Part shown: positions 1,073 through 14,279 of the stretch, in pieces
How the letters are laid out: each line of letters starts with the position of its first letter
Numbering within the stretch: the first letter of the stretch is position 1
Made by a program: the position numbers and the translations under genes
Notes under the pieces: model-generated
Database searches by the model: none
What the model saw: the letters and a program-made list of their open reading frames with translations, nothing else
What the model was told of the DNA's origin: nothing
Origin: Mangrovicoccus sp.
GTDB lineage: Bacteria > Pseudomonadota > Alphaproteobacteria > Rhodobacterales > Rhodobacteraceae
Length of the DNA: 64,000 bases
Direction: 5' to 3'
Assembly: GCA_025800345.1 (NCBI GenBank)
Contig: JAOXSB010000073.1
Location: forward strand, 21,467 to 85,466

Positions 1073-1663
1073 CTAAGTTGTTTGGAGGAAATCGACCGTC
1101 TCGTGTATGGCCTCCAGAAAGCTGAAAAGAACAAACGCAACTTGCCAAGGCTTGCGCCGCATTTTTCCTTCGAGTTCGATTTCTCCGATCATCGACCAAA
1201 TGCCCTCATCTCGAGGCTGTGATCCATTGTCATAGACGGGGCGAAAGTCATCGGTGTGGATAATTTTGTTGCAGCATTCGCGAAGTGTTTCAGGGATCTC
1301 CTCGCCTTCATAGATGGTGAGAAACCCGCCGTGTGCTGCAAGCTGTTCGGCTTTGAAGGTCTGGAACCCTCGTTCCTCTCGCAACTGGTCATCAAGCGCA
1401 CGGTACGACGCCGCTACGGTCAGTAGAATCCTCGATAGTCGCTCCTCGGCTGCGTCTTGGTGCCGTTTGACCAGCAATGGGTGCGACCACGCGGGATCTT
1501 CGCCAAATTCCTGAAGATCATCATTCCAAAAGGCCTCAACACCTCTCGTTGCGAGCGCGATCTCGAATGCTTCAAGGCACATGGATTCGATTGCGTCGCA
1601 ATCAAAGGCGAGTGGTTTTTTGAATTCGTGCCAGTACGGATTTTCGTTCGGTGATCGAGACAC
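1073..1663 (-). CDS. Hypothetical protein, third gene of the AbiE operon
   Basis: 196-aa ORF. Its GTG start shares 1 nt with the AbiEii stop, and GAGGG lies about 8 nt upstream. No recognisable domain. Confidence 0.6.
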   Translation of the reverse strand: MSRSPNENPYWHEFKKPLAFDCDAIESMCLEAFEIALATRGVEAFWNDDLQEFGEDPAWSHPLLVKRHQDAAEERLSRILLTVAASYRALDDQLREERGFQTFKAEQLAAHGGFLTIYEGEEIPETLRECCNKIIHTDDFRPVYDNGSQPRDEGIWSMIGEIELEGKMRRKPWQVAFVLFSFLEAIHETVDFLQTT

Positions 1664-2688
1664 TATTTCACCCTCTTATTGGCGCGGATTTGCAGGTCGG
1701 CCATTCTTTCCATGAGTTCATCAAAGCCGATTGCATCGGATCGCAGGAGCCCGGCATCGATCATCTTTTGGTAATCCTGATGAAGCGCCTCCAAAGGCTC
1801 GCCCTCGGGTGCCAAACAAAGTGAACCGGATACTGCTGTCGCATACTCGATCACCTTTCCTGTTTTGTCAGTCTCCCGAAAGAATTGTTGCTTGTGCTCG
1901 GCTACAGCGTTGGCGAGCCCTCGATCATCAAAGGCCTTTTGGGCAATCCCGATCTTATCCAGGCAGTCAAGATCGTACCAATGTCGCGCATAACGATCGC
2001 CACCGCGAAAGGCTCCGCGCAGGCAATACGCGTGAATGGCAGTGGCTTTTTCCCAGAATGTGCGCTCCGCAACCATGACCCTTGGGTGGGCTGTGGGCAA
2101 TATGAGCCCTTCGACCCCCTCGACTAGATCGCAGGTTACTCTGTGCCGCCCGGCAGGCTCGCCCGTTGAGCGTGCACCGAACTCCAGGAGCACCGCGGGT
2201 CGCACATATCCGTTGTTGCCGCGCACAGCTTTGTAATCCAGGTAGAGCCGGCCATTGTCCTGCCGCAGTGATGCTGGGAGCTTCTGGCTTTCAAATTGAG
2301 TGATGAACAAAGGCACTACGTCGGTCTCGATCCAAACTGACAAGCGCTCTTGCACAGCCTCTGACCACTTCCTTGCCTGGGACCGGTTTGGTGGATACGG
2401 GGTCTCGGGATTTGAGATGAGATCGGGAATAATCTGCCGAATGTCATAGGTCACATCGACGTCTTCAGAAAATCGGTCGATCGCCTTGTAGACTTTTGAT
2501 AGGGACGTTCCGCCCTTGAATACGAGATGATCGCTCCATTCGCTTTCGAAAAGAGCATTGAGCGCCCAAACGACCCAGATGTCTTTTTCGAGGAGATCAG
2601 CGGGCCGCCCCAAATTTGAGGCAGCCGCTTCGAGCGCATCGATTTTGTCTCTTTCGGACAGATCGAAATAGCTTGGGGTTCGTGTCAT
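1663..2688 (-). CDS. abiEii: AbiEii/AbiGii-family nucleotidyltransferase toxin (DUF1814, type IV TA)
   Basis: FKGGTSLSKVY and FSEDVDVTYD motifs are typical of AbiEii. I take ATG at 2688 (ATGA overlap with the upstream stop) rather than the track start at 2727. Confidence 0.85.
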   Translation of the reverse strand: MTRTPSYFDLSERDKIDALEAAASNLGRPADLLEKDIWVVWALNALFESEWSDHLVFKGGTSLSKVYKAIDRFSEDVDVTYDIRQIIPDLISNPETPYPPNRSQARKWSEAVQERLSVWIETDVVPLFITQFESQKLPASLRQDNGRLYLDYKAVRGNNGYVRPAVLLEFGARSTGEPAGRHRVTCDLVEGVEGLILPTAHPRVMVAERTFWEKATAIHAYCLRGAFRGGDRYARHWYDLDCLDKIGIAQKAFDDRGLANAVAEHKQQFFRETDKTGKVIEYATAVSGSLCLAPEGEPLEALHQDYQKMIDAGLLRSDAIGFDELMERMADLQIRANKRVK

Positions 2689-3281
2689 CACGCCACGGCT
2701 AGGGTGCTTAGTTCTTTCGCCATCCAAGTCGGCGCGCTGGCGCGTAAGGCGAGTAGCTCACGCCGCTCGTCTTCATTCAGTTGGGACTTGATACGCCCCA
2801 AAGCCTTGCCTGCTTCTGATTTGCCAAAGTAAGCCAATGCCCTGAAGGCATGCCCGGCCCGGCTGTTTGGCGCACGTAGCTGCCAACTCGGAACATGCTT
2901 CAATTCCACGCTTTGGGCCCCAAGCTTCAGATTGCGACTGGGACCGGACGTCCAGTAGATCTGGCGGGAGGGGTTTTGCGTCGACAAACCAAGTATATTG
3001 GCCGCAGAGGCACCGCTTAGCGACACACGTTCTCCTGTGGTTTTTGCGATGCTCTCAACAACAGCCTCGACAGATGGCGCACGCGCCCCGAAGCGGGTCT
3101 TTACAGGCAGGGCGAACAGACCACGTTTTACACGCATGAGCTCGCCACGCTTCACCAATCGAGACAAAGCCTGGTCAATTGCAGCGCGCTCTCCAAGGTG
3201 GAGAAGCTCTTTTGCAGAAAGGGCCGAGCCTTCCGGCAACGCTTCTGCATAGGCCTTGATCGCTTCGGATGTGGTTCTCAT
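2688..3281 (-). CDS. abiEi: AbiEi-like antitoxin / transcriptional autoregulator (DUF6088-like)
   Basis: 197 aa with an N-terminal winged-helix-like segment (IDQALSRLVKRGELMRVKRGLFALP). It is translationally coupled upstream of AbiEii. Confidence 0.75.
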   Translation of the reverse strand: MRTTSEAIKAYAEALPEGSALSAKELLHLGERAAIDQALSRLVKRGELMRVKRGLFALPVKTRFGARAPSVEAVVESIAKTTGERVSLSGASAANILGLSTQNPSRQIYWTSGPSRNLKLGAQSVELKHVPSWQLRAPNSRAGHAFRALAYFGKSEAGKALGRIKSQLNEDERRELLALRASAPTWMAKELSTLAVA

Positions 3282-3293
3282 GTCGGCTCCTTT

Positions 3294-3321
3294 GTGTCAG
3301 ATATATAGCTTGTTTTCTGAC
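3294..3321. promoter_or_regulatory. Inverted repeat TGTCAGA-N14-TCTGACA in the divergent abiEi / sigma-like promoter region (candidate operator)
   Basis: Perfect 7-bp arms read directly from the sequence, 13 nt upstream of the abiEi start. AbiEi antitoxins are known to autoregulate through inverted repeats. Confidence 0.35.
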
Positions 3322-3403
3322 AGTTTGCAAGGTAAAAGCAAAGCAGGGAACGCGCTGGAGAAACCGAACTAACGAATTGATTTACGAAAATTATGAACTT
3401 GAT

Positions 3404-4210
3404 ATGTGCATTGAACCCCTGAGAAAACGAACAGTAAGCGGAGAGCTCTATACCCGACGGGATGAGATTAATGCGTTTATCCGCTTGAGCCTTGATTGGC
3501 CCTTTGATGAGCTGCTGGACAAAGCTGCGATGCGAGATCGGCGGCACGCCGACTACGTGCCTTCCGAAGTGCTGCTCTATCACCTGAGACAAACCAAGAC
3601 CGACAATGCGGATGGCCGGTTTGTTGCACTTTACAACATTTTGTTGGATCGGATTGAAGCTGCCTGTCCCCGGCCCAATAGCCGACGCGGCGATAAGGAC
3701 GTCGAGGATTTTCGCGTCGCCGAGATCCGCGATAAAATAATAGAACGTGTGACAGAGCTCATGTTTGAGGACCGGCGGGGCTACGTAGAACAGCTTGACG
3801 CATATGAGGTGTTTTTTGACCGGGCCGTTCGCTCCGTTCGCATAGACAAATTTCGGCAGATAAGTGGTCGGGAAAATGCCACCGAATCCGTTGTGCACCA
3901 CGATGGCAGCGAGGATATCCGCGAGGAAGTCGAAGAGGCGCTTGAGCGATACAAAAAGTCAGGCCTGACAAAAGAAGAAGATTTTGATTACCGGTTTCGC
4001 ATACGTCGCGCGATTGACGCCTTACCCGAGGAAGAACGAAAGGTGATCGATTTGATGCTCGCAGAGATTCCCATTGAGACGAACAAAGACGGTGAGCCTT
4101 CAATGACCCAGCTGCTCGGCTGCGTCGAAAAAACCGTACGAAACAGGCGTGATCGTGCGTTTGAAAAGATCAGACGCGCACTCAAACTGGAGGACAATGA
4201 TGAACAATAG
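3404..4210 (+). CDS. Sigma-70 region-4-like DNA-binding protein (ECF-sigma-like C-terminus)
   Basis: The C-terminal IDALPEEERKVIDLMLAEIP...MTQLLGCVEKTVRNRRDRAFEKIRRAL looks like sigma-70 region 4. ATG 3404 is chosen to leave a divergent promoter region; the track start 3269 would overlap abiEi. Confidence 0.6.
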   Translation: MCIEPLRKRTVSGELYTRRDEINAFIRLSLDWPFDELLDKAAMRDRRHADYVPSEVLLYHLRQTKTDNADGRFVALYNILLDRIEAACPRPNSRRGDKDVEDFRVAEIRDKIIERVTELMFEDRRGYVEQLDAYEVFFDRAVRSVRIDKFRQISGRENATESVVHHDGSEDIREEVEEALERYKKSGLTKEEDFDYRFRIRRAIDALPEEERKVIDLMLAEIPIETNKDGEPSMTQLLGCVEKTVRNRRDRAFEKIRRALKLEDNDEQ

Positions 4211-4748
4211 AGAAGATGTCCTCAGCGACTTTACGATTGAGCCTGAAATGTCGCCTGCCGTGCTGAAAACCTATTTGAGCAAATACCCTGAATTTGCAGA
4301 CGAACTTCTGGATTTGTTCCACGAGCTGACAATGAGCGACATGGAAGCGGTCGAGGCAAGTCTCCCGCTTGAGACCAAGGCTATGAAGACCAGCGTCTTG
4401 CGGGTTAGGAAAGTCGAGCAAGCACTGTACGGCGCCGACGTTCGTGAACTCTCAAAATCGTTGGGTTTGCCGCGGAGTTTCCTCATGGGGTTACAAGCAA
4501 GTGTAGTCCATATCGGCTCGATGCCGATTTCGCTCCTTAATAAGCTAGCGAAACTGCTGGATGTGAGATTACAGGATGTCATCAGCGGCATGCAAATTGG
4601 CGATCAACAGGCCGTTGCGATGAAATCTGATGTGAAACCTGAAGCACAACCGGCCATCGAATTCCAAGTTTATGTAGACCAGGCTGGATTGACCGAGGAG
4701 GAGCAACGCGCATTACAAGAGTTGCTTGTAGATGATGGATCGGATTGA
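4197..4748 (+). CDS. Hypothetical protein with XRE-like HTH segment
   Basis: ATGATG at 4197 is preceded by GGAGG and overlaps the upstream stop by 14 nt. [20 protein letters not shown] resembles an XRE-type HTH. The C-terminal tail is acidic. Confidence 0.6.
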
Positions 4749-7700
4749 AGCCGTTCGTCGATGTGCCGCACATCTTCATACTGAGCGTAGGAGCAAGGGA
4801 GGCGATCCAACCCAACCCTATTCATTTGCTCTCCAAGAGGCAGAAGCTCGGGATTACGAAGTCCGCAAGCTCGCTCCTGACCATCCCCAGCTCAAAGGGG
4901 GACGGGCGCTCTTGCAGCCGAGAACCAAAGTCATCCTGCATGAGGATACGGGCAATGAGTTTTTAAATGCGTTTCTTGTTGCCCATGAGCTAGGTCATGA
5001 TGAATTTGGCGGAGGTATTGATGTCCCGCCAACCGTGAACATCGATCCGGCACGATCGTCTGATCCAGCCTCCGTTGGGGCGGATCGCGTTGTCGATTAC
5101 AGCAACCGTGCCCGCCAGGAAGTCCAAATGGATATGTTTGCGCGGGAGTTCCTCTTTCCGCGCAGTTTGGCCTGGTCCTGGCATGTCGAAGACAACCTTG
5201 GCGCAAAGGAGATTTCAGAGCGTCTTGGCGCCCCCTACGACATGGTTGCGGTGCAGCTATTTGATGCGCTTTTGTTACCGGTGTTGGAGGAAACGCCGGA
5301 TATCGCAAGCGCACCCAAACCATTGAACCGTGAGCAACAACTTGCTGCGGATCATGACGGAAAAGCGCTTCTGCTGAAGGCGGGCCCCGGGACGGGCAAA
5401 ACCCAGACGCTCGTTGGCCGCCTGTCTGTGCTACGAGACCGCGCTGTGCAGCCAGAGTCCATTCTGCTTCTGACATTTTCCAACAAGGCCGCAGGAGAGA
5501 TGACCGATCGGGCGCTGCGGGTTTGGCCGGAAGCGGCTGGTGCGGCCTGGATTGGGACCTTTCACTCATTTGGGCTTGATATCTTGCGCAGGTTTCATGA
5601 CTGCGTGGGTCTTCCCGCGGATCCCCGTATGATTGATACGACCGAAGCCATCGCCCTATTGGAGGATGAATTCCCACGGCTGCGTTTGAAGCATTTCAAC
5701 GAACTTTGGGATCCGACAGATACCCTGCGCTCTCTCCTTTCCGCCATTTCACGGGCCAAGGATGAGGTGGTCGACAACATCCATTACCGTAAGCTCGCCG
5801 AGCAAATGATGGAGGCCGCGGTCACAGAGGCGGATATCGAGGCAGCAGAAACGTGTCTGGAGATCTCAGCTGTCTATGATCTCTATGAAGAACTCAAGGC
5901 GGAACGCGGCGTGGTCGATTTTGGTGATCTGGTCGCTCGGCCGACAATGCTCGTCGAAGGTGATGCGGATGTTCGCGAGAAACTTCAACAACTCTACGAC
6001 CATGTTCTGGTGGACGAGTATCAGGACGTAAACCGGGCCAGTGTGCGATTGTTGAAGGCGCTGAAGCCTGACGGCACCAACCTCTGGGTGGTGGGAGATG
6101 CCAAACAATCGATTTACCGGTTTCGAGGTGCATCCTCGTATAACATTGATCGATTTGAGACCGAGGATTTCTCCGGAGGCAAAAGTCTCCCACTCAATAT
6201 CAATTACAGGTCATCACAAGAAATTTGTGACATATTCAAGGGCTTCGCTCAAACGCGCATGGTAGCTGCCGGTGTGGGCTTTGAGGCCACGGCGTTTAAG
6301 GGTGCCAGTGGGATTAGTCCCGTGTTTGTGGGCGTCGATGCCAAGGATCGCGAAATCGATGAAATCGCCTTCCGAATTAAAGACGCCTGCAACGAGGCCA
6401 CGTCTTTCCGTGATCAGGCCGTCATATGTAAGGGCAATGCGAGGCTGGCAGAAATCGCCGCTGGTTTAGAGGCGCGGGGTATTCCGGTCTTGTTTCTTGG
6501 GCCCCTCTTCGACAGACCAGAAATAAAGCAAGCGCTTTCCGTCCTTTCCCTTGTGGTTGACCCACGCGCCATGGGACTTGCCTGCGTCGCGTCTCTGCGC
6601 CCATTTCAAATGGCGATTGACGATGTTTCAGCTTGTGTTGATGCGGTTCGTGCCGCAAAGAACACGCTGCCCTTGGACTGGAGGCAGACGCTTTCGGGCC
6701 TAGACGACATCAGCGAGGCGGGTGAGAAGTCCCTCTCAAAGTTGATTGAGGTGTTTGGGGAGTTTGAACCAACTTCATCAGCCTGGCGCGTGGTTACAAC
6801 ACTCTATCTCGACAAGACGCGCTTGGCAGCCGAATTTGCGAAGGAAGCAAGATCAGGCAACGCAAATCCTGCGATTGCGATGTGGCAGTTTCAGAATTTT
6901 CTGAGATCAACATTGCCGAAAAAATCCGGGTACCCCATTCGTGATCTTCTCGATCACATCCGGCGCCTTGTCATTGTGTCAGATGAACGTGACTTACGCG
7001 ACCTGCCTGAAGCGGCACAAAGCCTCGACGCTGTCCGGATCATGACCATTCACGGCAGCAAGGGACTTGAGTTCAAAGTCCTTCATTTGCCGGCATTAAC
7101 CAGCCGATCCATTCCGCTGTCAGCCAAGCAAAACCGCGGACTTGCGCCTCCTGACGGCATGATCGAGGGTGCGCCCTTTAAGGGCTGTGACGCGCTCACG
7201 TCTGGGCATGACGAGGAGCAGGAATGTTTGTTTTTCGTCGCTTTATCCAGAGCAGAGGAGCGGTTGATACTTTATGCCTACAGCAAGAGATCGAAGTTCG
7301 TGGATGACATATCTGGTCATGTTCTAAGCGAAGCTTCACAATCGGCATCGACTGAATTCGCGATATCAGCGAACGGAATAAAGTTGGAGGTTGATGGCAT
7401 CGCTCGCATATCGCCTTCCCAGCTTGCGGCCTATGAAAAGTGCCCGCGGCGGTTTTTCTTTGCACATGTGTTGCAAGTCGGCGGTCGTCGCGCAGAGTCG
7501 CCCCTTATGCGTATGCACAACGCAGTCCAGGGCGTTGTCGATGAGCTGACGTCTCGTTTGAACGATGAACCAAGCGATGCAGAACTCGCAGCCATTATGG
7601 ATAAGGCGTGGGTGGAAAATGGTCCGGTGGATCATGGATACGCTGCCGAGTACCGTCAAATCTCAGACGAGCTGCTGAGTTTTTTCCGATTGGTCCGAAC

Positions 7701-8130
7701 AGGTGAAAAACGGCGCGCACCAACCCCAATTTCCTTGAAGTTCGGTGAGGCAGAGATTGTCGTGTCTGCACATGAGGAAGTCGATGCTGGGTCTGGCCGG
7801 GTGCTGCGGCGTATCAAAACAGGACGGAAGACCACGAACGCTGTCGAGTCCTTAGATGCGGCTGCCTTTCAGCTCGCCGCTGAAGGCCACGGCCAGGCAG
7901 AGTTCGTGTTTCTGACCGGCGCGACGCAGGACCGATTGACCATGAGCAGCACGAAACTGGGGAACCGGAAAACAAAGATCGCTCAAGCTGCAATTGCGAT
8001 CCTCGAAGGGCATTTCCCTCCAAAACGCACCGATCGCTGCGCCCGCTGCGCATATTTCTTCATCTGCAATGAACCGCCCTCAGGCACGCTCCGAAAAAAA
8101 ATCGGATCAGGCTTACCGGATTCCTCCTGA
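4732..8130 (+). CDS. ImmA/IrrE (M78) metallopeptidase + UvrD/PcrA-type SF1 helicase + Cas4/AddB-type PD-(D/E)XK nuclease fusion
   Basis: HEXXH ([10 protein letters not shown]) near the N-terminus. Helicase motifs [43 protein letters not shown] and ALSRA. C-terminal CPRRFF...[10 protein letters not shown] (C...CX2CX5C) is typical of iron-sulfur RecB-family nucleases. Confidence 0.85.
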
Positions 8131-8199
8131 CGCCGCGATTGTCCTTGTGAAGGCGCAGACATGAGGTTTACGTCCGCCAACTTCTTAAGGACGAACACA

Positions 8200-9051
8200 A
8201 TGAAATCGCAAGGAAATGATCCTCGCTTCCCGGTCTTCATCGCTGATGAGGGCCTCAACTACAAAAAACACGTTTTCGATGACCCAAAGGTTCTCGGTCG
8301 CCAGTTGATCGAAGCTGCCGACGGGCATCCGGTTGATGAACATGTGGCAATCGCCATTTTGCCAAACGGGGACTTCGAAGACATTCGCCTCGACGAAAGC
8401 TATGATCTGCGCGGGCGCGGTGCCGAGAAAGTGCTGGTTGCGCGGACGGACCGTGTCTTCAAGTTTAAGATCGACGACAAGGATCTTGAATGGCCGCGCG
8501 CGTGCATCAGCGGATTTGTACTGCGTAAGCTTGCGGACCTGCCGGAAAACTACAATCTCTGGCAGGAAATTCCAGGCCAGCAGGACCGCAAGATTGCTGA
8601 CTGCGATCTGATCAATCTCAATGCCAAGGGTGTGGAGCGGTTCATCTCGCTCATCGATCAGACGACGGAGGGGGACACCCTTCCGTCGTTCGATCAGACT
8701 TTTCTGGTGGACCATGGCTATCAGTTCGACGTCGTTCAGGAAGGCCGTGAAACCGGCATCATCCTGAAGTCGCTCGACCTGCCGGAAGGCAAATTCAATG
8801 TCGAAGCCGCGGACATCCTTGTACTCCTGCCAAACGGGTATCCCGACTGCGCGCCTGATATGTTCTATGCCTCTCCGCATTTGACGTTGGCGAGCGGTCA
8901 GGTCCCGAAAGCCTGCACGGTCCAGCACACCTATGCAGGTCGTGTTTGGCAGCGCTGGTCGCGCCACAACAACGCCTGGCGGCCCGGGATTGATGGTTTG
9001 CGCACGATGGTGGCGCGGATCAAAACTGCGCTCGCCGAGGCGCGGCCATGA
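8200..9051 (+). CDS. Tandem ubiquitin-like (Multi_ubiq) domains fused to a prokaryotic E2-like domain (family E type)
   Basis: Two beta-grasp-like repeats (VFIADEGLNYKKHVF... and FKFKIDDKDLEWPRACISGFVLRKLA...). These are followed by LPNGYPDCAPDMFY...GRVWQRWSRHNNAWRPGIDGL, which I recognise as Prok-E2_E-like. ATG 8200 has an AAGGA RBS. Confidence 0.8.
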   Translation: MKSQGNDPRFPVFIADEGLNYKKHVFDDPKVLGRQLIEAADGHPVDEHVAIAILPNGDFEDIRLDESYDLRGRGAEKVLVARTDRVFKFKIDDKDLEWPRACISGFVLRKLADLPENYNLWQEIPGQQDRKIADCDLINLNAKGVERFISLIDQTTEGDTLPSFDQTFLVDHGYQFDVVQEGRETGIILKSLDLPEGKFNVEAADILVLLPNGYPDCAPDMFYASPHLTLASGQVPKACTVQHTYAGRVWQRWSRHNNAWRPGIDGLRTMVARIKTALAEARP

Positions 9052-10442
9052 AGGGCCCGCTGGATATTGTTCTGGCTGGTCCGCACGAAGCCGGTATCCG
9101 GTCTCTGCTCGCGCAGGGTGCCGGTGCCGAGCGTTCCGCCTACATGCTTTTTGGGACAGCGGCGATTGAGAAAGACCCCTGGACGGACTCTGCTCGCACA
9201 CGACTCATTTCGCATGCATTCATCGACCTCGATGATGACGACGTGGTCTCAGCCTCCGAGCGCCACGTGACGTGGCAAACTGATAGTTTCATGCGATTGC
9301 TTGGTCGCGCCAAGTCCGGTGGCCTGGTTCCCGCCATCGTTCATACCCATCCAAAGGGCCGGGCCCGTTTTTCCAAACAAGATGACCGGAACGAGGCGGA
9401 ACTTGCGCGGACCGCCCTGTTCAAGGGTGCACCCGGACTAATTAGCGTTTTGATTGCGAGCGACGGCGAGATTGCCGTGAGGATTTGGCGCTCGGCTGAA
9501 AAGCCAACGGCCATCAGGCGTATTCTTCACACAGGACCGCGTCTGGCCCTCACCGCAGAGAACGGTAGCGAGCTGGGCTTTCTGGACCGTCAAACCCGAC
9601 TTTTCGGCGATCAGGCCAATGCAATGATCACGCAGTTTCGCTGCGGCATTTCCGGAGGGGGCGCTACGGGAAGCGCAGTGTTGCCTTTGCTGATGCGTCT
9701 TGGCGTGCGCGAGGCGGTCCTCTGCGAAAAGGACCATGCTGAAGATACAAATCTCAACAGGCTCCATGGCGCACGACAGGAGGATGTCGACGCTCATCGA
9801 GCCAAGGCTGACATTCATGCTCGGACAGTTACGGAGGCCGATCTTGGCATGTCATTGGTAACCATCGATGCCTGGGCCGGTGAGCCATGCACATGGGACG
9901 CATTGAGGTCTTGTGATGTGATTTTCTGTTGCACGGATGATCACGCCGGTCGACTCTTTCTGAACCGCTTCGCCCGTTTCTATGGCATTGCGGTCATCGA
10001 TGTCGGTCTCGCAATGCAGCGTCGCGATGCTCAGTCGTTCGATCTGTTTGCCCGGGTTACCACCCTTGTGCCCGGACACCCCTGTCTGCTCTGCGGCGGG
10101 TTCATCAACCCGCAACGCGCGCGCGAGGAAGCCCTGCAGCGGACTGATCCGGAGGCTTATGAAAAACTGAAAGAGGAAGCCTATCTGCTTGGTGAGGGTG
10201 ACCCCTCCCCTGCCGTTGTGACCTTCACGACAGAGGCGGGTGCCATGGCGGTCAATGAATGGCTGACCGGTATCACCGGATTTGCCGGAGCAAACGGAAT
10301 GGCACCGACGCGGATGCGCCGGTTTCACGCGCGCGATGAGCGTTTTCCTGAGATTTCGCCGCGCCCGGGTTGCCCGTGTTGTGATGCAACTGAAACGCTG
10401 GGCCGGGGAGACATGACACCCTTTCTGGACATGGTGACGTGA
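9048..10442 (+). CDS. JAB/JAMM deubiquitinase-like peptidase fused to E1-like (ThiF/MoeB) adenylyltransferase
   Basis: Intact JAMM motif HTHPKGRARFSKQD (HxHx7Sx2D). Rossmann GGGATGS, NLNR, CTDD. Paired CLLC and CPCC zinc site as in ThiF/MoeB. ATGA overlap with the upstream gene. Confidence 0.85.
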   Translation: MKGPLDIVLAGPHEAGIRSLLAQGAGAERSAYMLFGTAAIEKDPWTDSARTRLISHAFIDLDDDDVVSASERHVTWQTDSFMRLLGRAKSGGLVPAIVHTHPKGRARFSKQDDRNEAELARTALFKGAPGLISVLIASDGEIAVRIWRSAEKPTAIRRILHTGPRLALTAENGSELGFLDRQTRLFGDQANAMITQFRCGISGGGATGSAVLPLLMRLGVREAVLCEKDHAEDTNLNRLHGARQEDVDAHRAKADIHARTVTEADLGMSLVTIDAWAGEPCTWDALRSCDVIFCCTDDHAGRLFLNRFARFYGIAVIDVGLAMQRRDAQSFDLFARVTTLVPGHPCLLCGGFINPQRAREEALQRTDPEAYEKLKEEAYLLGEGDPSPAVVTFTTEAGAMAVNEWLTGITGFAGANGMAPTRMRRFHARDERFPEISPRPGCPCCDATETLGRGDMTPFLDMVT

Positions 10443-10443
10443 G

Positions 10444-10815
10444 ATGAAAAAGCTATTGGCAAACCTGCTTCGGCAGCTTGGAGTGCTGAGGTATGACTAT
10501 CTGGTGAGCAGGCAGGACGCCTTTCCGCAAACGCCTGAATCAGAACCGGACGAGTTAATCCTGGTCGAGAGCGGCGCGATCCAAAAATGGGCCTGTCTCT
10601 CCTGCCCTGGCGGCTGCGGCGAGAGGATCGCTTTGTCTCTCAACCCAGATCGCCGACCTCGCTGGAGCATTAGGACAGATTTCTGGCAGAGACCCACACT
10701 CCACCCGTCGGTGCATCAGCAAAATGACTGTGGATGCCACTTCTGGGTCAAAAAGGGTCAGGTTCATTGGTGCAAGGGTGGGCGGCCGCAATCACCGAAC
10801 AAGAGAATGGAATGA
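10444..10815 (+). CDS. DUF6527-like small Cys-rich protein
   Basis: 123 aa with CLSCPGGCGE...TLHPSV...CGCHFWVKKGQVHW, matching my memory of the DUF6527 signature (xPS...C.SH.W...G.v.W). It starts 1 nt after the E1 stop. Confidence 0.7.
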   Translation: MKKLLANLLRQLGVLRYDYLVSRQDAFPQTPESEPDELILVESGAIQKWACLSCPGGCGERIALSLNPDRRPRWSIRTDFWQRPTLHPSVHQQNDCGCHFWVKKGQVHWCKGGRPQSPNKRME

Positions 10816-10888: not shown

Positions 10889-11590
10889 ATGCGTTTCGCT
10901 TTAGACGAGGGCAAACGAGTTGAAGCCACCCCAGGCGCCAAAGGCAAATGCCCAGGATGTGGTGCAGAACTCATCGCACGATGCGGAACCAAGAAAGTTT
11001 GGCACTGGGCCCATAAAGGTCAGCGGCATTGCGACCACTGGTGGGAAAACGAAACGCAGTGGCATCGGGACTGGAAGAACCACTTCCCGTCTGATTGGCA
11101 GGAGATCCCAGCTCGAGATGAAGCGGGTGAACTTCATATCGCAGACATCAAGACGCCAAAGGGTTTGGTTGTCGAGTTTCAGCACTCTTACATCAAGCCA
11201 ACAGAGGCCTGTAAGAGAACAGAGTTTCACAACCCGATGTTTTGGGTTGTCGATGGAACTAGGCGAAAGACGGATCCCAAGCAGTTTCAAACAGCACTGA
11301 AAGACGGCTTAGAACATCCAACGAAGGATGGGCTTGTTCAACAGATTTGGGTCTATGATTCACGGCTGATCAAAGAATGGGTTCACGTCGGAGTAATCGT
11401 TGCATTCGATTTTGGCAAAGACACAGTTTGGATCCTCCGTCGAATTAAGAACGATTGGGTATATGGATTTGAGTACCCGAAACTCAAACTGGTCGAGCAT
11501 ATCTCTGAAAGCAGGCCCATCCCCGATGTGTTATTTGGCCAGCCTGAACGTCGGACAGCAAGATACCGTCGCCGCCGGGCCAGATTTTGA
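10889..11590 (+). CDS. CoiA-like (competence protein CoiA family) putative nuclease
   Basis: N-terminal CPGCGAELIARCGTKKVWHWAH zinc-ribbon plus HCDHWWENETQWHRDWK and ADIKT...VVEFQHS core resemble the CoiA family. ATG 10889 is chosen over track start 10724, which overlaps the previous gene. Confidence 0.7.
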   Translation: MRFALDEGKRVEATPGAKGKCPGCGAELIARCGTKKVWHWAHKGQRHCDHWWENETQWHRDWKNHFPSDWQEIPARDEAGELHIADIKTPKGLVVEFQHSYIKPTEACKRTEFHNPMFWVVDGTRRKTDPKQFQTALKDGLEHPTKDGLVQQIWVYDSRLIKEWVHVGVIVAFDFGKDTVWILRRIKNDWVYGFEYPKLKLVEHISESRPIPDVLFGQPERRTARYRRRRARF

Positions 11591-11899: not shown

Positions 11900-14170
11900 T
11901 TAGCCGCTACATTTGGAATAGCCGCAACTGCCGCAGGTCATGCAGCCTTCAAGCATCCGCATCTCATAGGCCCCGCAACTGTCACAGGCTTTGCCCCGTG
12001 GGCGGGCCGTATCAATCATGTCATGGGGATCAGATTTCAGCCCTTGGCCTTCGCCATCGATAAAGCCGATGGCCACCATATGGCGCTCCACCACGCCGCC
12101 GATCGCCGCCAGGATCGAGGGCACATATTTGCCTTCCATCCAGGCCCCGCCGCGCGGGTCGAACACGGCTTTGAGCTCTTCCACCACGAAAGACACATCG
12201 CCGCCGCGCCGGAACACCGCCGAAATCATCCGGGTCAGCGCCACGGTCCAGGCGTAATGCTCCATATTCTTGGAGTTGATGAAAACCTCAAAGGGCCGGC
12301 GGCGCCCGTTCACCTCAATATCGTTGAGAGTGATATAGATCGCGTGCTCGCTTTCGGGCCAACGCAGCTTATAGGTATGCCCTTCGAGAGCACGGGGCCG
12401 ATCCAGCGGCTCGGTCAGATGCACCACATCGCCGCTCACCACCGGGGCGGGGGCGGCGGTTTCCTTGGGCTTTTCTTCGGCAACGCTCAGCACCGAGCCG
12501 GTCACATCATTGGGCCGGTAGGTGGTGCAGCCTTTGCAGCCCTGATCCCAAGCGGCCAGATAAACATCTTTGAAATCCTCAAAGCTGATATCTTCGGGGC
12601 AGTTGATAGTTTTGGAGATGCTGGAATCGATCCAGCGCTGCGCGGCGGCCTGCATGCGCACATGATCCATAGGTGCCAGGGTCTGCGCATTGACGAAATG
12701 ATCGGGCAGCGGCGCATCGCCCTTGAGCTCGCGCCACATCTGCACCGCGTAATCGGTCACTTCTTCTTCGGTGCGGGTGCCATCTTTTTGCAGCACTTTG
12801 CGGGTGTAGCTATAGGCAAAGACCGGCTCGATCCCGCTGGACACATTGCCCGCGTAAAGGCTGATGGTGCCAGTGGGCGCGATCGAGGTCAGCAGCGCGT
12901 TGCGAATGCCATGCTCGCTCACCGCCGCGCGCACATCCTCGCCCATGCCTTGCATAGTGCCGCTGGCCAAATAAGCGTCGCGGTCAAACAGGGGGAAGGG
13001 GCCTTTTTCCGCCGCCAGATCGACCGAGGCCAGATAAGCGGCGCGGGCAAGCGCCCCCAACCATTGATCGGTCAGACGCGCCGCTTCCTCGGATCCATAA
13101 CGCTCCCCTACCATCAGCAAAGCATCGGCCAGCCCGGTCACCCCAAGGCCGATCCGGCGCTTGGCCGCGGCTTCTTGCGCCTGCGCTTCCAAGGGGAATT
13201 GGCTGGCATCCACCACATTATCCATCATGCGCACGGCGAGGCGCACCAGATCATCCAACGCCGCCTCATCAAGCCCTGCATCGGGGCCAAACGGGTCTTT
13301 GACCAGCCGCGCCAGATTGATCGAGCCCAGCAAACAGGCCCCATAGGGCGGCAATGGCTGCTCGCCGCAAGGATTGGTGGCGGCGATGCTTTCGCAATAG
13401 GCCAGGTTATTGGCGGTGTTGATCCGGTCGATGAAAATCACCCCGGGCTCGGCGAAATCATAAGTGGATTGCATGATCGCATCCCACAGCGCCCGGGCCT
13501 GCACCGTGCGATAGACCGTCCCGTCAAACACCAGATCCCAAGCCCGGTCCGCTTTCACCGCTTCCATGAACGGATCGGTGATCAGCACCGAAAGATTGAA
13601 CATGCGCAGCCGCGCCGGATCGGATTTGGCCGAGATAAACGCCTCGATATCAGGGTGGTCACAGCGCATGGTGGCCATCATCGCGCCCCGGCGCGAGCCC
13701 GCGGACATGATGGTCCGGCACATCGCATCCCAAACATCCATAAAGCTCAGCGGGCCAGACGCATCCGCCGCCACCCCATGTACTGGCGCGCCTTTGGGCC
13801 GGATGGTGGAGAAATCATAGCCGATCCCGCCCCCTTGCTGCATGGTCAGGGCGGCTTCTTTGAGCATATCGAAAATCCCCGACATCGTGTCGGGAATCGT
13901 GCCCATAACAAAACAGTTAAACAGCGTTACCGCCCGGCCAGTGCCCGCACCGGCGGTGATCCGCCCCGCTGGCAGGAATTTGAAATCCTCAAGCGCCTCA
14001 TAAAATTTCGGCTCCCAAGCGGCGGGATCTTTTTCCTGCTCGGCCAAGGCCTTGGCAATGCGCTGCCAACTGTCTTCGATACTATGATCTACCGGGGCAC
14101 CGTCGGCGTCCTTAAGGCGGTATTTCATATCCCAAATCTGCTCGGCAATGGGCGCAGAGAATCGGCTCAT
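11900..14170 (-). CDS. nrdJ: Vitamin B12-dependent (class II) ribonucleotide reductase
   Basis: Strong family resemblance throughout (TNPCGEQPL, SISKTIN). C-terminal Cys-rich tail CDSCG...CMTCGSCGYSKC. ATG 14170 (MSRFSAPIAEQIW) is preferred to the upstream track start. Confidence 0.9.
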   Translation of the reverse strand: MSRFSAPIAEQIWDMKYRLKDADGAPVDHSIEDSWQRIAKALAEQEKDPAAWEPKFYEALEDFKFLPAGRITAGAGTGRAVTLFNCFVMGTIPDTMSGIFDMLKEAALTMQQGGGIGYDFSTIRPKGAPVHGVAADASGPLSFMDVWDAMCRTIMSAGSRRGAMMATMRCDHPDIEAFISAKSDPARLRMFNLSVLITDPFMEAVKADRAWDLVFDGTVYRTVQARALWDAIMQSTYDFAEPGVIFIDRINTANNLAYCESIAATNPCGEQPLPPYGACLLGSINLARLVKDPFGPDAGLDEAALDDLVRLAVRMMDNVVDASQFPLEAQAQEAAAKRRIGLGVTGLADALLMVGERYGSEEAARLTDQWLGALARAAYLASVDLAAEKGPFPLFDRDAYLASGTMQGMGEDVRAAVSEHGIRNALLTSIAPTGTISLYAGNVSSGIEPVFAYSYTRKVLQKDGTRTEEEVTDYAVQMWRELKGDAPLPDHFVNAQTLAPMDHVRMQAAAQRWIDSSISKTINCPEDISFEDFKDVYLAAWDQGCKGCTTYRPNDVTGSVLSVAEEKPKETAAPAPVVSGDVVHLTEPLDRPRALEGHTYKLRWPESEHAIYITLNDIEVNGRRRPFEVFINSKNMEHYAWTVALTRMISAVFRRGGDVSFVVEELKAVFDPRGGAWMEGKYVPSILAAIGGVVERHMVAIGFIDGEGQGLKSDPHDMIDTARPRGKACDSCGAYEMRMLEGCMTCGSCGYSKCSG

Positions 14171-14279
14171 GGTGGGCGGTCCTGTCAGAATCGTCGGATG
14201 CGGTGAAAGAGGCCCCACCCTATTGCAACCCGCTATAGCTAGTCTACCATAAAGCGCAGACAACAAGGACTAGAGAAAA

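Follow-up and report, generated by a model that had tools for sequence, protein, structure and literature searches.

The genes at positions 8200-10815 of the window (the 64-kb stretch of DNA analyzed here as a whole) are, judged by their sequences, a Type I Bub operon, formerly 6E.1/DUF6527, and the open reading frame at 8200-9051 is its BubAB pre-protein, in which a Ubl made of two beta-grasp domains is fused to an E2-like domain. By homology to the system described from Citrobacter, we put the probability that this locus is such an operon, and that its proteins act in the cascade proposed below, at about 0.9. A Ubl that has no free C-terminus, paired with an E2 that has no catalytic Cys, was the central puzzle of the 6E/DUF6527 operons, and it was answered in 2024 in the Citrobacter Type I Bub system. 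The mechanism is therefore already known from published work, and the two-domain subfamily has already been catalogued; the locus is one more well-preserved member of the minority two-beta-grasp Type I Bub, and it is found in a marine alphaproteobacterial island.

The operon is encoded on the plus strand. In the list of open reading frames, bubAB (8200..9051) opens with an ATG at 8200 and closes with a TGA at 9049-9051, giving a Ubl2-E2 fusion precursor of 283 codons plus the stop. A further in-frame ATG is located 5' of this at 8161, which would add 13 residues and result in a 296-aa protein. However, the Phaeobacter inhibens locus has ACG where this ATG would be, whereas at the position equivalent to 8200 it retains both the ribosome-binding site and the start (AAGGAC...ATGAAA). 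Furthermore, most bubAB homologues encode 283-284 aa and begin at the position equivalent to MKSQGN. Therefore, the start at 8161 was rejected and 8200 was assigned as the start of bubAB, so that the coordinates 8200-9051 given by the first-pass annotation were correct. Downstream, bubCD (9048..10442) overlaps bubAB by the sequence ATGA and encodes a 464-aa JAB/JAMM peptidase-E1 fusion, assigned from Pfam Prok-JAB and ThiF matches and from its phmmer match to 9ea4_A. A 1-nt spacer separates it from bubE (10444..10815), which encodes a 123-aa DUF6527 Ser/His peptidase (Pfam PF20137, E 1.3e-24). The domain order across 8200-10815 is thus Multi_ubiq twice with Prok-E2_E, then Prok-JAB with ThiF, and finally DUF6527.

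Within BubAB, the Pfam matches are Multi_ubiq, in two stretches (PF14452, E 1.8e-26), and, C-terminal to these, Prok-E2_E (PF14462, E 8e-43). These scores lie far above chance expectation. An AF2 model of the protein, built from a 60-sequence alignment and with a mean pLDDT of 90.9, contains two beta-grasp domains at residues 10-82 (8227..8445) and 87-152 (8458..8655, with ERFISL as the last strand), and a UBC-like domain that opens with a helix at 163-171. The Ubl part matches the PDB multi-ubiquitin proteins 9d5b, 8u38 and 9d59 in sequence searches (E 4e-30 to 3e-24), and the same three structures are the Foldseek matches for the first beta-grasp domain.

The "6E/DUF6527" operons were renamed Bub (bacterial ubiquitination-like) by Ye et al. 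(bioRxiv 10.1101/2024.11.21.623953), in whose scheme Type I Bub (6E.1) comprises BubAB, a Ubl-E2 protein, BubCD, a JAB-E1 protein, and BubE, a DUF6527 protein; Gong et al. (bioRxiv 10.1101/2024.11.21.623966) is a companion preprint from the same group. The window has the Ubl-E2 fusion, the adjoining JAB-E1 fusion and the adjoining DUF6527 gene, and at the level of residues it has the junction Gly, an E2 Ser with His and Asp and no conserved Cys, and the E1 Tyr and Arg. The Type I Bub of Citrobacter sp. RHBSTW-00271 (PDB 9ea4, 9eae and 9eav) shows the identical three-gene order and fusions, and shares with the window the junction Gly, the E2 Ser-x-His with its Asp, the Tyr of the E1 crossover loop and the Arg of NLNR, an intact JAMM motif, and a BubE with a Ser/His dyad and a Cys cluster. 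However, the Citrobacter Ubl consists of three beta-grasp domains whereas the Ubl here has two, and the similarity is moderate, with 28% identity for the E2 (Foldseek) and phmmer E values of 1.5e-11 for the E2 and 4e-26 for BubCD.

Other Ubl conjugation systems resemble the locus less completely. Type II Bub (6E.2: BubA, BubBD and BubE) likewise has a Multi_ubiq Ubl, a Ser-based E2, a Tyr-based E1 and a DUF6527 peptidase. However, it has a separate Ubl gene, an E2-E1 fusion, usually no JAB, and Lys and His as E2 helpers, whereas here the E2 is joined to the Ubl and the JAB to the E1, with His and Asp as helpers. Assignment to Type II, which needs the BubBD fusion and a free Ubl with no JAB, was rejected on account of the Ubl-E2 and JAB-E1 fusions. 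Similarly, the bacterial ISG15-like (Bil) systems of Types I and II and the eukaryotic ubiquitin and ISG15 precursors have a tandem beta-grasp Ubl that is produced as a precursor or depends on a protease to expose its C-terminal Gly, and they have a cascade from E1 to E2 together with a JAB deubiquitinase. These systems rely on Cys thioesters and an E1 containing IAD-AAD-CYS domains, with E1, E2 and DUB each encoded separately; in contrast, here it is the E2 that is fused downstream of the Ubl, and there is no conserved catalytic Cys. Bil Type I/II was rejected because the E2 lacks a conserved Cys and the E1 consists of one ThiF domain joined to a JAB. Among the PADLOC models (2023 defence catalogue) none matched BubAB or BubE, and the ThiF part of BubCD gave weak E1-E2 (Cap2-like) matches only; the system is absent from that catalogue. 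In NCBIfam, neither BubAB nor BubE belongs to a named family, and the matches to BubCD were sub-threshold and of the ThiF/MoeB type only.

As the Ubl domains precede the E2 in a single polypeptide, it had been argued from the DNA alone that a free Ubl C-terminus requires processing, with the Gly of TTEG as a plausible maturation site. The need for processing agrees with published biochemistry, in which the JAB domain of BubCD cuts the homologous Citrobacter BubAB directly behind the conserved G229, as determined by Edman sequencing (Ye et al., 10.1101/2024.11.21.623953). In the window the linker reads ISLIDQTTEGDTLPSF, exactly as the first-pass annotation had quoted it, and the codon for G158 is GGG at 8671-8673. 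The Ubl C-terminal tail IDQTTEG (8656..8673) would end at G158 as the predicted mature C-terminus, with G158/D159 as the scissile bond; within the AF2 model, confidence is low only across residues 151-160. Homologues whose linker lacks any conserved Gly had been named as an outcome that would speak against the proposal. Two database searches yielded 153 fused sequences, from which we took 38 non-redundant representatives that are 23-53% identical to the window protein. All 38 retain G158, as do 152 of the 153 fused homologues, the remaining one having a gap at this position, and T155, T156 and E157 beside it are likewise strongly conserved across the 153. The linker Gly is therefore conserved, and together with Ubl genes that stop right after TTEG where the fusion is absent, this upholds the Gly of TTEG as the maturation site.

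These unfused genes came from the same database searches. Stand-alone Ubl homologues end in ...ERFFTGxxQTTEG, and stand-alone E2 homologues, of roughly 127 aa, begin at the point where the E2 part starts in the window protein. For example, one contig (L004) carries a Ubl2 gene whose last codons read QTTEG-stop, with a Prok-E2_E gene beginning 3 nt on, and another (L005) carries a Ubl1 gene closing with TTTEG-stop, after which come E2, JAB-ThiF and BubE genes; at the unfused loci the E2 gene starts 3-5 nt past the ...TTEG-stop of the Ubl. Evolution has thus repeatedly split the fusion at exactly the G158 bond, as one would expect were G158 the mature C-terminus, and natural gene fission after TTEG pins the cleavage site independently of the biochemistry.

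The first-pass annotation offered either the JAB domain or the neighboring DUF6527 protein as the enzyme that matures BubAB. In Citrobacter, the purified JAB domain alone cuts BubAB, an activity that is absent from the E28A and D104A mutants (Ye et al., 10.1101/2024.11.21.623953). The JAMM signature of BubCD in the window is complete, comprising E28 and H99-x-H101-x7-S109-x2-D112. Citrobacter DUF6527 (BubE), on the other hand, is a Ser/His peptidase (S92/H102) with very weak activity on a BubA-GFP fusion, for which it needs 48 h in vitro; on co-expression in E. coli it removes BubA-target conjugates, and an AlphaFold 3 prediction holds the C-terminal Gly of BubA at its dyad (Ye et al., 10.1101/2024.11.21.623953). 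The BubE encoded here has S89, C96 and H99 at the +7/+10 spacing of Citrobacter S92, C99 and H102, an equivalence judged from spacing and not from an alignment. It also has a Cys-rich zinc site, with a CxxCxxxC cluster (C51, C54 and C58) in addition to C96 and C98, and a hydrophobic N-terminal extension like that described by Ye et al. Published biochemistry thus favors the JAB half of the earlier suggestion, and the weak peptidase activity of BubE tells against the other half. One could nevertheless propose that BubE is the main BubAB maturase at G158 and that the JAB only removes conjugates, given that BubE is specific for the Ubl, cuts a linear fusion, and is predicted to seat the BubA Gly at its dyad. 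Additionally, the split operon L005 retains the JAB though its Ubl needs no cleavage, and because split operons keep it, the JAB has a job besides precursor cleavage. However, the Citrobacter JAB cuts after the Gly with no partner and loses this activity on mutation, BubE activity in vitro is extremely weak, and the JAMM motif at this locus is fully intact, which makes BubE an improbable main maturase.

The E1 part of BubCD shares further features with Citrobacter. The phmmer match to Citrobacter 9ea4_A (E 4e-26) aligns R238 (in NLNR) and Y379 (in EEAYLLG) to Citrobacter R227 and Y370, both of which are needed for Citrobacter conjugation (Ye et al., 10.1101/2024.11.21.623953). Equating R238, Y379 and D112 with R227, Y370 and D104 relies on a 2-residue offset that we deduced between the numbering of the PDB chain and that of the paper, and the same offset makes D104 of the paper the JAMM Asp. 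Y379 is the predicted oxyester Tyr and R238 the predicted adenylation Arg; the Cys residues in the E1 part are only buried or of the zinc-type CxxC...CxCC.

The E2-like domain, BubB, spans residues 159-283 (8674..9048), as placed by phmmer to 9eae_C, by conservation and by Foldseek. It matches Citrobacter BubB (9eae_C, in which chain residue 1 is residue 230) with a phmmer E value of 1.5e-11, and QRWSRH is common to both. The AF2 model of the domain superimposes on the same chain over 123 columns with a TM score of 0.90 and an rmsd of 1.4 A (Foldseek). Citrobacter BubB has an invariant Ser that forms an oxyester with the help of a His and an Asp, and S333A/H335A abolishes conjugation (Ye et al., 10.1101/2024.11.21.623953). 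The predicted catalytic S254 (8959-8961) aligns to S333, and the predicted helpers H256 (8965-8967) and D220 (8857-8859, within APDMFY) align to H335 and D299, respectively. Examination of the 38 non-redundant fused homologues reveals that S254 and R255 are kept in every one and H256 and D220 in 37 each, and no Ser of the E2 part other than S254 is conserved among them. The motifs YPDC, KAC and WSRH occur in the E2-like domain as the first-pass annotation quoted them, and YPDC (C217) and KAC (C239) contain its only two Cys. That annotation considered the nucleophile impossible to assign by eye. Neither Cys is conserved, in keeping with its statement that this E2 family lacks the canonical catalytic Cys, but alignment now settles on a residue: because S254 aligns to BubB S333, is invariant in 38/38, and has no conserved Cys to compete with it, the nucleophile can be assigned, on this comparison, to the Ser of WSRH, the very Ser that had been singled out.

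Before 2024, a different view of the family prevailed, in which the fusion would stay uncleaved and the beta-grasp domains would act as a permanent adaptor or oligomerization module of an inactive E2-like protein. The E2 does lack a conserved Cys, earlier bioinformatic work predicted inactive E2s, as cited by Ye et al., and the protein retains each of the six Ca2+-ligand positions known from the Ubl3 filament core of Citrobacter, which would fit a structural role. Against this, the junction between the domains coincides with the invariant Gly, which is also where natural fission variants end. At the E2 active-site position, Ser, Arg and His vary little or not at all, and the Citrobacter homologue conjugates (Ye et al.). 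Together these points make a permanently uncleaved fusion very improbable. As for a conventional thioester Cys as the E2 nucleophile, both candidates lie within the E2 domain and C217 is common among close relatives (90/153 fused sequences), but C217 is Cys in only 2 of the 38 non-redundant sequences (mostly Ala) and C239 in 1 of 38 (mostly Thr or Ala), and the structurally equivalent catalytic position of BubB is the invariant Ser, so that this idea failed on conservation and has almost no chance of being correct.

The Type I Bub cascade that we propose for the locus is extrapolated from the three-beta-grasp Citrobacter system, whose E2 is 28% identical to the one here (E 1.5e-11), and the biochemistry of cleavage, oxyester formation and conjugation comes only from Citrobacter and, in part, from the Type II system of E. 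coli ZDHYS365. The N-terminal JAMM domain of BubCD (E28, H99, H101, S109 and D112) would cut BubAB between G158 and D159, releasing a 158-aa two-beta-grasp BubA that ends ...DQTTEG-COOH and a 125-aa BubB that starts DTLPSF. The E1 domain of BubCD would then adenylate G158 via R238 of NLNR and carry the Ubl as an oxyester on Y379 of the crossover loop. From there the Ubl would be passed to Ser254 of BubB as a second oxyester, with H256 and D220 activating the serine, and BubB would hand it to target lysines. The two Cys of the E2 domain would have no catalytic role in this explanation. Conjugates would be removed by BubE, through its S89/H99 dyad and with its zinc site, and probably by the JAB domain too. 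From its context, the biological role of the cascade is probably antiphage or stress response.

The Ubl differs from that of Citrobacter by one beta-grasp domain, and we therefore compared the two domains in the window individually with those of three-domain Ubls by phmmer. Domain 1 has its best counterpart in beta-grasp 1. Domain 2 matches best to beta-grasp 2, and not 3, in 14 of 17 Ubl3-E2 representatives, the exceptions being P0142, P0175 and P0226. A global MAFFT alignment was ambiguous on this correspondence, and in solved structures the two domains again correspond to domains 1 and 2. The alternative that they represent domains 2 and 3 of Ubl3 proteins was rejected on the 14/17 result. 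Since the window domains match domains 1 and 2, the missing domain is, by this correspondence, the flexible third one that binds the E1. In Citrobacter, the third beta-grasp domain binds the E1 and BubE and projects from a Ca2+-dependent filament, and two-domain Ubls account for 7% of Bub operons (bioRxiv 10.1101/2024.11.21.623953 and 10.1101/2024.11.21.623966). Recognition by the E1 and JAB could differ in detail here, because the domain engaged by the E1 would be the counterpart of beta-grasp 2 and not of the E1-binding beta-grasp 3.

The Citrobacter filament study mutated the Ca2+-ligand residues D30, E62, E68, D85, D130 and E147, and in our alignment these correspond to D28, E60, E66, D84, D129 and E146 of the window protein. 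We entertain, as a rather doubtful idea, that the two-domain Ubl corresponds to domains 1 and 2, which form the core of the filament, and that Ca2+-driven self-assembly could mask or expose its TTEG tail. If so, ion status would be coupled to cleavage by the JAB and access by the E1, and the assembling unit would be either the Ubl or the uncleaved Ubl-E2 protein. The third domain normally holds the conjugatable Gly away from the filament, and the Ubl here is without that spacer. In the accessible part of the filament study, the Ubl2 proteins of Pseudanabaena and Bradyrhizobium were monomers by SEC-MALS, and that part reports no Ca2+ condition for the measurement. Gating by Ca2+ could represent a mildly novel logic, as this same part of the study does not describe it for the two Ubl2 proteins tested. 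Foldseek comparison of the Ubl part with the filament structures gave an rmsd of 7.6-7.9 A and a TM score of 0.56, and because of this high rmsd the inter-domain orientation in the AF2 model is unusable as an argument for or against filament competence.

The operon lies in a stretch of comparatively low GC content, at about 0.51-0.59 up to roughly 12 kb versus about 0.57-0.66 beyond, with a housekeeping class II ribonucleotide reductase gene marking the right edge. An AbiE toxin-antitoxin pair is located upstream of the operon, and a scan of the 64-kb window for tRNA genes as a possible integration site found none. Immediately upstream of the operon come genes for a sigma-r4-like protein, a small protein and an M78 peptidase-UvrD-PD-(D/E)xK fusion, with no plain CapH+CapP or CapW regulator among them. 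P. inhibens has the same operon, with a BubAB of 284 aa that is 79% identical, preceded by these three upstream genes in unchanged order, but at another chromosomal site and without the CoiA_N-like gene that lies downstream in the window; Table S1 of Gong et al. (bioRxiv 10.1101/2024.11.21.623966) enters its operon under Type I Bub, 'two beta-grasp domain'. Finally, annotated BubAB proteins with 96-97% identity to the one here occur in Roseovarius, Marinibacterium, Martelella, Epibacterium and Phaeobacter, and such close identity across these genera indicates a recent horizontal spread.

Two contigs were found to carry a Type I-like Bub operon with bubA and bubB as two distinct genes (L004, positions 102-1019, and L005, positions 4723-7187). 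In both contigs, a TTEG-stop closes the Ubl gene and a Prok-E2_E gene begins 3-5 nt further on. Genes for JAB-ThiF and DUF6527 come after the Prok-E2_E gene in L005, and the L004 contig ends inside the gene next to it. According to the report that defined the two types of Bub operon (bioRxiv 10.1101/2024.11.21.623953), the fusion is a feature of every Type I operon, and therefore the unfused arrangement falls outside that scheme. The representative search also returned relatives consisting of one part only (42 E2-only and 64 Ubl-only), some of which may be fragments, or members of Type II or Bil operons. Two longer relatives were also detected. P0104 (502 aa) has precomputed Pfam matches to Prok-JAB and Multi_ubiq, and shows 79% identity over 62% of the query. 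In the 505-aa P0127, residues 2-225 align with query residues 43-261 and approximately 280 further residues lie beyond. These two proteins may be additional fusions, or artefacts of assembly or frameshift.

Compared with Citrobacter Ubl3, the window BubA (residues 10-152, positions 8227-8655) is without the third beta-grasp domain, yet all six Ca2+-coordinating positions of the Ubl3 filament are retained, as D28, E60, E66, D84, D129 and E146. Among the 12 two-domain representatives, each of these positions is conserved in 5 to 11.

Regulators of the CapH plus CapP or CapW kind are reported for ~39% of Bub operons. In contrast, a set of three genes (3404-8130) occupies that place 5' of bubAB in the window, as it does in the Phaeobacter inhibens locus (L001, positions 3187-7931), where the gene order is identical and the junctions overlap as well. 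The set encodes a sigma-region-4-like protein, a protein of ~180 aa for which no family match was found, and a 1132-aa fusion of M78 peptidase, UvrD and PD-(D/E)xK. Divergent from the sigma-like gene, an AbiEi-like (DUF6088/AbiEi_4) and AbiEii toxin-antitoxin pair is located on the minus strand together with a 196-aa ORF that likewise gave no family match (1073-3281). The pair and this ORF, along with lower GC content, mark the first 11.9 kb of the window as an accessory or defence island adjoining a class II ribonucleotide reductase gene (11900-14266, minus strand). The CoiA_N-like gene 3' of bubE (10889-11590) is absent from the orthologous P. inhibens locus, where its site is taken by an unrelated, oppositely oriented 227-aa gene. 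The CoiA_N-like gene is probably not a core component of the Bub module.

Homologues P0001-P0016, from genomes labelled Roseovarius, Marinibacterium, Martelella, Epibacterium and Phaeobacter, are 96-97% identical to the window BubAB. Such identity across differently labelled genomes points to recent movement of the island by horizontal transfer among marine Alphaproteobacteria.
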